Shown: piece after piece, positions 38,750 to 43,002 of the stretch | How the letters are laid out: the number at the start of each line of letters is the position of its first letter | Position numbering within the stretch: the first letter of the stretch is position 1 | IMG/VR virus record: IMGVR_UViG_3300043449_001497 | Span: 8,744 to 72,743 of that record | DNA from: a virus | DNA length: 64,000 bases | Strand: one strand, 5' to 3' | Made by a program: the position numbers and the translations under genes | The notes under the pieces: generated by a model | What the model was told of the DNA's origin: nothing | Database searches by the model: none | Seen by the model: the letters and a program-made list of their open reading frames with translations, nothing else

Positions 38750-39571
38750 TCACACGACGGGCGCACCCGTCTGAGCGTCGCGGACGAACCCGCTACGGTC
38801 CGTGCGCGCCTTGCCCTTGGCACGGAGCAACACCACGTGACCGGGAGGGTCAAGGTGGCGCAGGTCCGTCTCGTCGCCATCCACAGTCGGATAGCCCATG
38901 AACGTCGACGGCACAGGCTTGCCCGCCTTCACGTTCACGACGACGGCGACGTTGCCGCCAGCCGCCAGCACGCTGCGAGCGATGGCCTCGCGACCCGTGC
39001 CGCGGTCGAGGCTGTACGTGTACCGCACGCCGTCGACCGTGCCCGCACGCCCACGTGCCGGGTCTTTCGTGTAGTCGTACCGCACGGCCTGAGACGGCAC
39101 GCGCAAGCCGGGGAACACGGACTCCCAATGAACGTCGCTCGTACCGTTGAGCCGGAACGAGACCGATAGCTCGAGGCTATCGGCCCACGCTGCGACGTGC
39201 GCCATGTCCCGTTCGAGGTGAGCGCGGAAGGCTTCCGGCTCGCGGTCGAACATGCGCGTCCGCTTGTAGCGGCCGTGCTGCACGTTGTTGGCGAACGCGC
39301 GGCCTGCGTAGCTGGACATCGGGATGCCCCCACGGCCAGCCGTGTTGAGACACGACGCAGCGCACGCACCAGCCCACGGGCACAGGTTGCCCAGCCCAGG
39401 CACCTCGCCGTTCAACACGGCGAGCCGGGCGTACTCACGCGCCGGGAGCAGATGCAGGACCGCCGTCACCTCGCCGCGCTTCCCACCCTTGGCAACCTTG
39501 GGGTTGTCCAGCGTGAGCAGCTTGAGCTTGGACTTACAGGCGTTGAACCCTGCGAACTCGTACGTCTTCAT
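38750..39571 (-). CDS. GP88-like protein (radical-SAM-like Cys motif)
   Basis: CPWAGACAASC, RLNGTSD, YDYTK, DGDETDLR and LRAKGKA. Confidence 0.7.
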   Translation of the reverse strand: MKTYEFAGFNACKSKLKLLTLDNPKVAKGGKRGEVTAVLHLLPAREYARLAVLNGEVPGLGNLCPWAGACAASCLNTAGRGGIPMSSYAGRAFANNVQHGRYKRTRMFDREPEAFRAHLERDMAHVAAWADSLELSVSFRLNGTSDVHWESVFPGLRVPSQAVRYDYTKDPARGRAGTVDGVRYTYSLDRGTGREAIARSVLAAGGNVAVVVNVKAGKPVPSTFMGYPTVDGDETDLRHLDPPGHVVLLRAKGKARTDRSGFVRDAQTGAPVV

Positions 39572-39584
39572 GCTTTCCTCCTGA

Positions 39585-40100
39585 GATGCTGGCAGCCCAG
39601 CGTATTGCTGGCTGCCCCGGATATCCGGGCTCAACCCAACGACGCGGTAGCCCCGCTGGGTTGAACGCGAATATCCGCGCGTACACGGACCGTGGCTGTG
39701 CTCACACGGGCGGGCACCACATGCCCGCGGGGGCAACGGTGCGGCTTTCGCTAAGCGGCTGCGAGGATGCCACGCATACAGGCGTACGCGCTGATATTCG
39801 GGGAGGTGTGGAGCCTATCGGCACGGGGTCCGCATTGCCATGTCCGGGCAACCGGGCGGCCTTCTTCCCGACGGTTTCAGTCGGGGGCTAGGTGTCCACT
39901 GCCTAGCTGCGAGGGATGCGCGCGTCTCACGACGTGACGCGCTCGCAGCTAGTGCTACCATCTGTATGCGAATGTGAAAGACACGGGCGACACGCTGCCT
40001 TGAAACCGACCTTGCAGCCGGGGCACCGTGCCGGGTTTCCCCGTCACACTGCTAGCATACCATGACGGTATGAACCCGTCAAGGGACGCTAGCGGTCTAA
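39585..40100 (-). ncRNA. Candidate large structured RNA or leader
   Basis: About 500 nt without a credible ORF; many stems, GNRA loops on the minus strand, directly downstream of a promoter. Confidence 0.5.
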
Positions 40101-40174
40101 GCTCTGAAAGAGCGGGGCCGGGGCCCCTGAGGGCCTGAGCCCCCGTGGTCGGCGTTTCCGCTTCCCACGCTTTC

Positions 40175-40203
40175 AATATGCCCCGTTCCTACCACGGCGT
40201 CAA
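40175..40203 (-). promoter_or_regulatory. Early promoter C
   Basis: TTGACG-17-CATATT, followed by a boxA-like CGCTCTTTCAGA at 40103-40114. Confidence 0.7.
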
Positions 40204-40511
40204 GGTCTCACGGGCTGCCCGTCACACGGGCGCGCGACGCACGCCTGACCCGGCCGCGGGCCCGCTGGCGGCCGCTGCCCCTCAGGCGGCGGGCCGCCCT
40301 CTGGAGCCGCCGCACTCCACCCCTCCCTCCTCCACCCTCTCCGGCTGTTCCACCCTCTCCGGCTATACAGGGTCCCCTGACGGGGACCATTGAAGAGACG
40401 CACTGAGAAGCCCCAGGAGCTCGACGCCAGGGGGAGGGGCTACCTGGGTAGCACCCTGTCCTAGATCGTTGCTCCTGGGGCTTCCCAGTGCGGTTCCTGC
40501 GGGGTCCAATG

Positions 40512-40547
40512 GAAAGGCCCCCGAGGAGAGGTTCCTCGGGGGCCGGG
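40512..40547 (-). terminator. Terminator of unit A
   Basis: GC stem followed by ctttc on the minus strand. Confidence 0.6.
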
Positions 40548-40552
40548 ATGAG

Positions 40553-40750
40553 TCAGAGACTGTGGAACTTGGCTTCGGATTCGACCAGCTGGTTGAACCG
40601 AGCCCGGTCGGGCTCGGCTGCGCCCTCGAGGAAGAGTTCCCCGGTGACGACACCGCGGTCGCGGGTCAGGGTGGCGGCGATGATGAAGTAGCCCTTGCTC
40701 TTGTAGTTGTAGACGAGGTAAGCCCCGTCGTCGAACCGATGAATGAACAT
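40553..40750 (-). CDS. Unit A ORF3, hypothetical
   Basis: ggagacaagcATG start. Confidence 0.6.
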   Translation of the reverse strand: MFIHRFDDGAYLVYNYKSKGYFIIAATLTRDRGVVTGELFLEGAAEPDRARFNQLVESEAKFHSL

Positions 40751-41301: not shown

Positions 41302-41444
41302 GCTTGACTCCACTAGAGTGAGGGGGAGACACGCTAGGCGACGCTTGCCGCACGCGGGGCGTCGTCACTACCATGCTATGGGGTTGTGAAAGAGCGGCGG
41401 GACCGAGGCCCCCCGTCAGGTCCGCTTCCGTTCCTGACATCTAC

Positions 41445-41473
41445 AGTATGCCCCGTCTAGTGCATGGTGTCAA
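41445..41473 (-). promoter_or_regulatory. Early promoter A
   Basis: TTGACA-17-CATACT; boxA-like CGCTCTTTCACAAC at 41383-41396. Confidence 0.75.
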
Positions 41474-41678
41474 GGTGGGAACGCTACAGGCCCGGATAGG
41501 GCGCGTGACGGCCCGGCGCACGGGTCCGGCCCCGCTTGCGCGCGGGCTCGCTCATGCGACGCCCCGCCCTCCAGCCGTGTCGCCACCCTCTCCGGTACTA
41601 CCACCCTCTCCGGCATACAGAGCCCCCTGACGGGGGCTGCTAGAAGAAGAGCTCGAGACCAGGACCGAGCGGACATGA

Positions 41679-42500: not shown

Positions 42501-42635
42501 GCTTCATCTCCGAGAGTAGGGTGAGGGTCGCACGGCGTACCTGCTAGGGCAGGGGCCGGGTGACCGAACCAGCGTATGGGGTTGTCAGAGAGCGGGGCGG
42601 GGAGGGCGTTTCCGTCGTTCCCTTTCCGTGCATAC

Positions 42636-42664
42636 AGTATGCCCTGTCTAGTGACAGGTGTCAA
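42636..42664 (-). promoter_or_regulatory. Early promoter B
   Basis: TTGACA-17-CATACT; boxA-like CGCTCTCTGACAAC at 42581-42594. Confidence 0.75.
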
Positions 42665-43002
42665 GCGTCAATGCGATAGCCCCCGAATAGACATGGCTCG
42701 CGGGCGCGACGCCCTTCCGACGACGCCGACGCCCCCGTGCGACCGCGCTTCTCGCTGGCGACGCCCCGCCCTATAGTAGTGGCGCCACCAACATCATCAA
42801 CAACCCCCTACACCCCAACAACAACCATCATGGGACCCAACTCCCCCTGTCCTCTTCCTGGCGAGTAAAAAATCCCAAATCCCCATACCACCGGGGTACG
42901 CCCACTACGTGGCCGCACCATGCGTGGATGACGCGAGGTCCGCGATGGCGTGGCCACTCACAGGGACCGACGTTATACCCCCTTGGTCTACCAGGAGCCC
43001 CC

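Follow-up and report, generated by a model that had tools for sequence, protein, structure and literature searches.

The locus and its features

The DNA analyzed here, referred to as the window, is a 64-kb stretch covering bases 8744-72743 of a 72,743-bp IMG/VR virus record which is rated complete (IMGVR_UViG_3300043449_001497). On its minus strand, between an early promoter-like site and a gene of the GP88 family, lies a segment of about 525 nucleotides (nt) in which a large structured RNA was observed, an observation that is very probably real. For the RNA body (39572-40096, minus strand) the fold comprises at least nine helices (P1-P9), and on the transcribed strand it has GNRA loops; the same predicted fold was found to be kept through compensatory base changes in two fetched relatives, L002 and L122. 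The helices, which were read from the minimum-energy fold, and the features flanking them are listed below in the direction of transcription.

40175-40203, minus strand: promoter-like site C (TTGACG, 17 nt, CATATT), found by pattern scan and kept in L002 and L122
40114-40168, minus strand: promoter-proximal module common to the sister units, consisting of a GCG-GAAA-CGC hairpin (40161-40152) and a GC-rich hairpin (40143-40114)
40097-40113, minus strand: boxA-like box, GCUCUUUCAGAGCUUAG, from comparison of the units
40051-40093, minus strand: P1, a long hairpin with GCUAGC/GCUAGC at its base (40093-40088 with 40056-40051)
40032-40045, minus strand: P2, invariant GACGGGGAAACCCG
39988-40033, minus strand: P3, a hairpin with an internal loop and a GCAA loop (UCAA in L002); 4 of 10 pairs are compensatory
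39955-39981, minus strand: conserved junction, UCUUUCAC (39981-39974) ... AUGGUAG (39961-39955)
39903-39952, minus strand: P4, an 11-bp stem with an invariant CGUC-GUGA-GACG apex (39934-39923)
39813-39899, minus strand: P5 region, with hairpins P5a (39867-39885) and P5b (39827-39862) followed by a conserved CCCGU
39799-39806, minus strand: invariant CCUCCCCG, whose CCUCC is the predicted partner of the ribosome-binding site GGAGG
39668-39800, minus strand: P6; its basal 8 bp are common to all three sequences, with one A-U to G-C exchange
39629-39666, minus strand: P7, a 14-bp hairpin (UCAACCCAG.../...UGGGUUGA), 100% paired with 2 compensatory pairs
39617-39628, minus strand: P8, a palindromic hairpin (CCGGAUAUCCGG, CCGG-AUAU-CCGG)
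39591-39616, minus strand: P9, hairpin GGCAGCC/GGCUGCC (39616-39610 with 39597-39591)
39569-39581, minus strand: ribosome-binding site GGAGGA (39581-39576) and ATG (39571-39569) of the GP88-family gene
38750-39571, minus strand: GP88-family gene (PF17338, phrog_1617; 273 aa), the first gene after the RNA

The genes of the window include those for a DNA polymerase, a primase-helicase, a helicase, a portal protein, and a terminase, the last of which shares no more than 26% identity with the terminase of any cultured phage. The public runs which hold this DNA are freshwater or aquatic metagenomes. The minus strand carries three sister early units (A, B, and C) in tandem, each made up of a sigma-70-like promoter, a small GNRA-capped hairpin, a GC-rich hairpin, and a boxA-like box; the spans of this common promoter-to-box module are 42568-42665, 41370-41474, and 40097-40203. 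The promoters share the pattern TTGAC(A/G), 17 nt, CATA(C/T)T (42664-42636, 41473-41445, and 40203-40175) and also form a repeat family (42633-42665, 41442-41474, and 40172-40204). Between 38600 and 42800 four promoter-like sites were found, compared with 0.5 expected.

After the hairpin, the box takes the general form CCCCGCUCU(U/C)U(C/G)A in all three units as well as in L002 and L122. In unit C it reads GCUCUUUCAGAGC at 40113-40101 (minus strand), and the corresponding boxes of units B and A read CCGCUCUUUCACAAC and CCGCUCUCUGACAAC, respectively. The likeness to boxA refers to the E. coli and lambda consensus, from which the boxA of the host may differ. The sharing of this module by three tandem units suggests that Nus-type antitermination would operate across the whole early region. 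In units A and B, short open reading frames (ORFs) begin within about 70 nt and clear terminator-like hairpins lie at the ends (41713-41683 and 40544-40516). In unit C, about 525 nt separate the box (40113-40097) from the next credible gene.

Folding of the transcribed strand

An initial annotation, made from the letters of the window alone, had proposed a highly structured RNA on the minus strand, and its fold proved to be much better than that of shuffled controls. The minimum free energy of 39571-40110 on the minus strand was -267.3 kcal/mol compared with -222.2 +/- 6.5 kcal/mol for 100 dinucleotide shuffles (z -6.93), none of which did as well. The plus strand of the stretch gave z -5.09. 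In the homologue L002 (1218-1673), z was -5.93 and again 0 of 100 shuffles were as good. All eight helices which the annotation had named are present on the minus strand where it had placed them and recur in the minimum-energy fold. Its assignment of GNRA loops to the transcribed strand was borne out for GAAA, GCAA, and GUGA, which are GNRA loops on the minus strand only. Moreover, G-U pairs make up 17 of the 173 pair cells in the alignments of P2-P4 and P7-P9 described below, and these would be C-A on the other strand. Together with the better sense scores, these features point to the transcribed (minus) strand as the folded strand, and the RNA would therefore be read in the direction of the early promoter.

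The base of P1 covaries, being GCUAGC/GCUAGC in the window, GCGCUG/CAGCGU in L002, and CCAG/CUGG in L122, while its apex (CCCUUGACGG..UCAUACCG) is conserved. In the window only, P1 embeds a promoter-like sequence (TTGACG, 17 nt, TATGCT with a TG extension, 40082-40054); transcripts from it, if it were used, would begin right at the conserved core. An internal promoter was considered as the main role of P1 and rejected, as the -10 element is not kept in L002 or L122 and the -35 element is changed in a further strain (run X2, see below) while the stem covaries. P1 is therefore read as an RNA hairpin.

P2 (GGGGAAACCC, 40042-40033) is predicted to form either a GAAA-capped hairpin or a G-run paired with downstream CCCC or CCCGU. 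The strands of P4 are CUAGCUGCGAG and CUCGCAGCUAG (39952-39942 with 39913-39903); this helix is 100% paired in the alignment and has 3 compensatory pairs. In the P5 region, P5a is formed by CCCGAC/GUCGGG (39885-39880 with 39872-39867). This region is a clean three-way junction in L002 and L122, and the window keeps two hairpins and the CCCGU. P6 pairs CGAAUAUC and GCGCGUACGC with GUGUACGCGC and GAUAUUCG (39800-39782 with 39686-39668) around GC-GAAA-GC. The tip of P6 is extended in the window by about 100 nt (39677-39791) which L002 and L122 lack, and this extension has its own three-way junction with the GC-GAAA-GC hairpin. A duplication of the P5 module as its origin was not supported by sequence comparison (z about 1). 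P8 reads CCCGGG-UAU-CCCGGG in L002 and L122, and in P9 an A-U pair is flipped to U-A in both relatives. No U-tract follows P9.

Conservation of the fold and non-coding status

The two homologues come from the start of a 51-kb IMG/VR contig (L002/L003) and from a 4.4-kb metagenome contig (L122). Their GP88 proteins are 78% (L002) and 79% (L122) identical to that of the window, and both of them have the same promoter and box upstream of a leader of about 435-450 nt which can be aligned with that of the window. Leader identity is 62.9% for window-L002, 64.6% for window-L122, and 78.3% for L002-L122; the corresponding values for the GP88 coding sequence are 75.8%, 73.2%, and 79.0%. The three-sequence consensus fold contains 130 pairs, 29 of which have both sides changed with pairing kept. 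Its alifold energy is -147.7 kcal/mol compared with -88.4 +/- 6.2 kcal/mol for 60 column shuffles, which preserve gap and conservation patterns, giving z -9.5 for the sense strand and -7.1 for the antisense strand.

So that the structure would not be fitted to the window, only L002 and L122 went into the covariance models. The core model R1 covers P2-P4 with 154 positions and 36 pairs; its match in the window, at 39898-40048, scores 90.9 bits (E 1e-21). Standard pairs occupy 105 of the 107 pair cells of the resulting alignment (98.1%), compared with 36-45% when the partners are slid by 1-3 columns. The 3' model R2 likewise finds the window (44.9 bits, E 3e-11), and 97% of the 66 cells of P7-P9 are paired as opposed to 21-46% after sliding. 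Seven of the 36 pairs of R1 are compensatory, a number reached by 0 of 500 shuffles, as are 3 of the 22 pairs of P7-P9 (reached by 15 of 500), counts which are suggestive rather than definitive because the alignments were fitted to the model and hold three sequences. P6 could not be aligned by model because of the extension of about 100 nt at its tip in the window. When each of the three sequences was folded alone, equivalent hairpins were obtained for P1, P6, and P7-P9. Homologues with covariation had been named as a check on the initial annotation, and compensatory base changes were thus seen in both relatives. The RNA also contains long invariant unpaired blocks, and its 5' core includes the invariant blocks GUGACGGGGAAA, CAAGGUCGG, and CGUCGUGAGACGCGC.

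A strain about 97% identical to the window was read from the contigs of run X2. On the same contig, 22 differences are listed in the 822-nt gene and at most 2 in 232 nt of the 3' domain of the RNA. The 5' part of the RNA has 13 differences, 10 of which are crowded into P1 (40063-40096). Among these, A-U is exchanged for C-G at 40079/40065, and U-A becomes U-G at 40063. A G.G mismatch at 40026/39995 becomes A.A, and the same position is A-U in L002 and G-C in L122. This variation is mixed evidence, being mostly compatible with the fold, with two exceptions which are taken up with the leader reading.

The initial annotation had seen no credible ORF in the stretch, and none emerged from the comparison. 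The longest sense-strand ORF has 73 aa (39955-40176) and starts at a TTG inside the -10 hexamer of the promoter. Between the window and L002, substitutions at the three codon positions number 58/51/50 in the leader, showing no third-position excess, as opposed to 49/39/111 in the GP88 gene. Each pair of sequences differs by 11-13 gap events in the leader and by 0-1, in frame, in the gene. Translated similarities across the three sequences are short, are spread over all six frames, and shift from one frame to another along the stretch, and no frame is both open and conserved in all three. By these sequence comparisons the stretch is non-coding.

Distribution and search for known families

The RNA lies upstream of the gene in all three fetched contigs which have both a GP88 protein at least 78% identical and upstream sequence. 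In about 160 loci with distant GP88 proteins (at most 58% identity), neither R1 at E<=0.01 nor nhmmer gave a match. With three of three close contigs carrying the RNA and none of the distant ones, the RNA is tied to one narrow GP88 clade.

Wider searches added no further member. An nhmmer profile of the three sequences found nothing more in 284 fetched loci, blastn of 39571-40560 had no match in 50,697 phage records, and motif and peptide-pattern scans of IMG/VR turned up no contig other than that of L002/L003. A scan with 15-mers lacked specificity, giving at least 119 chance stretches, and the loci that it yielded (L004-L083) were disregarded. With the GP88 profile, L122 alone was close among the best 80 of 583 relatives in the metagenome collection; among the best 80 of 588 relatives in IMG/VR none was close, and L002 was not one of them. 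A first scan of the genome collection had no match, and the three matches of a second one (L282-L284) were due to chance and had no nhmmer match. A protein search revealed about 17 more GP88 clusters (67-88% identical) in public assemblies, and the family could therefore probably be enlarged enough for a rigorous covariation analysis.

With the covariance models of Rfam 15, which include GOLLD, ROOL, riboswitches, ribozymes, RNase P, tmRNA, and 6S RNA, there were no matches at the gathering score in the 64-kb window, in agreement with the unclassified status given to the RNA in the initial annotation. At E<=10, 12 rows fall in 39300-40700, all far below threshold, and at E<=5 there are 3 unrelated sub-threshold rows in L002 and L122. 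No tRNA or tmRNA was found by ARAGORN. The segment thus looks like a new, multi-domain structured RNA outside the catalogued families.

A proposed leader of the GP88-family gene

The promoter and boxA which the initial annotation had placed upstream of the RNA were both located, at 40203-40175 and 40113-40101, as a promoter-like site and a boxA-like box. From there to the end of the gene (40175 to 38750) no terminator-like site was found, in contrast to the clear ones which end units A and B. In all three sequences, P9 lies 10-25 nt before GGAGGA and ATG. The simplest view is therefore that the RNA is the 5' leader of the unit-C mRNA. In each of the three sequences the predicted pairing probability of the ribosome-binding site is 0.95-0.99, as opposed to 0.57-0.77 in shuffled leaders, and the native pairing was reached by 0 of 20, 0 of 20, and 3 of 20 shuffles. 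Its predicted partner is the CCUCC of CCUCCCCG in the window and L122, and a conserved UCUUUC junction in L002. As CCUCC sits just 5' of P6, the masking helix would close the P6-P9 domain. The predicted cost of opening the site is 4.0, 6.6, and 7.4 kcal/mol across the three sequences, so that the modeled masking is modest and reversible, and not a lock.

The reading that we favor, although it falls somewhat short of probable, is that 39572-40096 forms the main body of an early-operon 5' leader of about 600 nt which is restricted to one clade, antiterminated through boxA, and controls translation of GP88. Transcription would start at the sigma-70-like promoter C, and the boxA-like box would recruit host Nus factors. 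As in rRNA operons, polymerase could then cross the roughly 525 nt of untranslated structured RNA without being terminated by Rho or at hairpins; such a length of untranslated RNA is an obvious Rho target, and the boxA-like box therefore fits the picture. The leader would act in cis on GP88 translation, with CCUCCCCG (in L002 the UCUUUC junction) pairing with the GP88 ribosome-binding site and closing the 3' domain P6-P9. The 5' domain P1-P5 might sense or bind a protein (perhaps GP88 itself), a ligand, or a folding state, and thereby set how often the site opens.

Several points weigh against this reading. The masking energy is modest (4.0-7.4 kcal/mol), the predicted partner differs between sequences, and G+C-rich shuffled leaders are already 57-77% paired at the ribosome-binding site. 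As the anti-ribosome-binding-site segment and the ribosome-binding site are both invariant, their pairing has no support from covariation, and no alternative open partner is predicted for CCUCCCCG. At about 450-540 nt, the RNA far exceeds what simple masking of a ribosome-binding site needs. Promoter use and boxA function are read from motifs. A P5 model built from L002 and L122 (R3) had no significant match in the window even with filters off, its best match (E 0.22) falling inside the window-specific P6 extension; the P5 region of the window has diverged too far for it, and P5 therefore appears to be conserved only loosely. With three full sequences, two of them 78% identical, the covariation stems from few independent events and is below the grade of R-scape. 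Finally, the two exceptions in run X2 are a C-G pair of P1 changed to G.A (40078/40066) and a difference at 39869 which breaks a C-G pair in P5a.

A riboswitch-like swap between CCUCCCCG and the invariant P2 G-run was hinted at by a two-sequence fold and was not reproduced by constrained folding. Among the public runs holding the stretch there is no RNA run; X17 and X20 are labeled RNA-Seq, are probably DNA, and hold small parts of it only. The uncovered parts of the stretch in X3, X7, and X17 carry no information.

Alternative explanations

The RNA could instead be cut from the early transcript as a stand-alone, stable non-coding RNA acting in trans, as a decoy, a scaffold, or a ROOL/GOLLD-like RNA-only assembly, with GP88 as an incidental neighbor. 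We regard this main rival as unlikely, yet deserving of serious attention. In its length (about 430-540 nt), its many helices, and its three to four GNRA-type loops, the RNA is typical of compactly folded ornate RNAs and not of simple operators. The 5' core is highly conserved in its invariant blocks, the 3' domain accumulates few differences in X2 relative to the gene, and masking of the ribosome-binding site is weak. Moreover, according to PMC10250234, the boxA-type complex serves cells for making structured untranslated RNA. On the other hand, neither a terminator-like site nor a conserved 3' end signal follows P9, no match to ROOL, GOLLD, or another Rfam family was found, and the RNA occurs only directly upstream of one GP88 clade (all three contigs).

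A structured, G+C-rich spacer without specific function, whose hairpins stabilize the 5' end of the mRNA or arose by drift, is improbable. Such a spacer would account for the narrow distribution, the poorly conserved P5 region, the lineage-specific insertion of about 100 nt, and the hypervariability of P1 in X2. However, L002 and L122 are as similar to each other in the leader (78.3%) as in the coding sequence (79.0%). The compensatory changes which keep the helices and the long invariant unpaired blocks further make a functionless spacer unlikely.

The part of the initial annotation which proposed an unclassified large structured non-coding RNA or leader stands, and the anatomy favors the leader. 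The ribozyme which it had also allowed has nothing in its favor other than the size of the RNA, its conserved unpaired stretches, and its GNRA loops. It is very improbable that the RNA processes the early transcript by self-cleavage or another catalytic activity: in 39300-40700 (E<=10) and in the relatives L002 and L122 (E<=5) no ribozyme family of Rfam 15 appears, and no signature motif was recognized.

Equally improbable is an element acting at the DNA level, such as a replication or packaging site, an operator array, or an internal promoter. The plus strand also beats its shuffles (z -5.09), P8 is a palindrome in DNA, and P1 holds the promoter-like TTGACG-17-TATGCT sequence with its TG extension. 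These features are outweighed by the G-U pairs (17 of 173 cells) which would be C-A on the other strand, the stronger sense score (z -9.5 as opposed to -7.1), the restriction of the GNRA loops to the minus strand, and the loss of the internal -10 in L002 and L122 and change of its -35 in X2 while the P1 stem covaries. A hidden small protein-coding gene has next to no probability: a stop-free frame of 72-77 codons does occupy the first 220 nt or so in all three sequences, with translations 56-66% identical over 43-47 residues, but such identity is expected from about 85% nucleotide identity without selection, the frame is broken by frame-shifting indels, substitutions have no codon-position bias, and the only start codon of the ORF in the window lies within the -10 hexamer.

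The downstream gene and neighboring elements

The GP88 protein matches Pfam PF17338 (E 9.5e-25) and phrog_1617 (E 4.4e-53), and beyond these it has no family match and no NCBIfam family. Its AlphaFold model is confident (pLDDT 87.6). Compared with the PDB, the model has no fold match at E<=1e-3 and gives weak TIM-barrel-like rows only. Cysteines 64, 70, and 74 are invariant across 44 relatives. The genomes of several cultured podoviruses have a GP88 homologue as one of their first genes.

Upstream of promoters C and B there are direct repeats of GCCGGAGAGGGTGG(A) (40332-40363 and 41583-41614, respectively), which may bind a regulator. A near-perfect hairpin of about 105 nt (40394-40498, minus strand) also lies between the terminator of unit B and promoter C, with an energy of -75.9 kcal/mol for 40390-40502. 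It is kept better than its flanks, with 91% identity in L002 (813-925) and 85% in L122 (1621-1731), and against Rfam it gave microRNA-precursor rows, all of them sub-threshold. RNase III-type processing of early transcripts is familiar from T7. By analogy, early transcripts that read through might be processed at the hairpin by an RNase III-type enzyme, or the hairpin could be a site at the DNA level.

Significance

Large structured RNAs are rare in bacteria and phages, and so far every new class has brought unexpected biology. It is conceivable, though rather doubtful, that the RNA is the founding member of a new class of large, compact phage RNAs made like rRNA under a boxA complex, with P1-P5, its GNRA loops, and its long invariant junctions as a sensor, catalytic, or self-assembling core. 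If true, this would mean a new ribozyme, a giant riboswitch, or an RNA-only machine deployed early by an uncultured freshwater phage. The assets of the candidate are its defined setting (an early operon, a boxA-like box, and one downstream gene family), its domain organization, and a natural insertion variant. The arrangement also suggests that phages may use rRNA-style antitermination to make long untranslated RNA.

Comparison with known systems

No paper describing this RNA turned up in the literature searches. A survey of structured RNAs in IMG/VR reports candidates of 29-151 nt, for which at least three regions were needed, and includes candidates directly upstream of phage gene 32; 'GP88' and 'PF17338' occur 0 times in its main text, and its supplementary tables might list a fragment (PMC10690425).

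Another paper describes ornate RNAs of several hundred nt, carried by phages or known from environmental sequence, whose function was unknown at discovery (PMC12286853). Like GOLLD, ROOL, and OLE, the RNA is several hundred nt long, has many helices, and occurs in phage or environmental sequence. Unlike them, it stands directly before a ribosome-binding site without a terminator, is known from three sequences, and has no covariance-model match. It is smaller than GOLLD. The RNA resembles GOLLD and ROOL in size and complexity and, by the covariance models, is a member of neither.

Lambda nut and HK022 put are short, promoter-proximal RNAs of early operons (one or two stem-loops) which modify polymerase. 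Their equivalent here would be the hairpin-plus-boxA module (40097-40168) and not the 525-nt RNA, which only unit C has. The rpoS leader and the T4 gene 32 operator are long 5' leaders or operators in which the ribosome-binding site is masked. As in these, the ribosome-binding site has a predicted pairing partner in a pyrimidine-rich segment upstream; the present RNA differs from known phage operators in being 5-10 times larger and in that the predicted pairing is without covariation support.

In rRNA leaders, the order of elements is boxB-boxA-boxC, and the boxA complex resists Rho and has an RNA-chaperone role in long-range folding, according to PMC10250234. Like the leaders of rRNA operons, unit C has a promoter, a hairpin, a boxA-like GCUCUUU box, and then a long untranslated structured RNA. 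Unlike them, it is a phage leader placed before a protein gene, and its box is boxA-like by sequence; sister units A and B have the same box with ordinary short leaders. With moderate to low confidence, the closest parallel to its mode of action would be an rRNA-type boxA leader combined with a translational operator.

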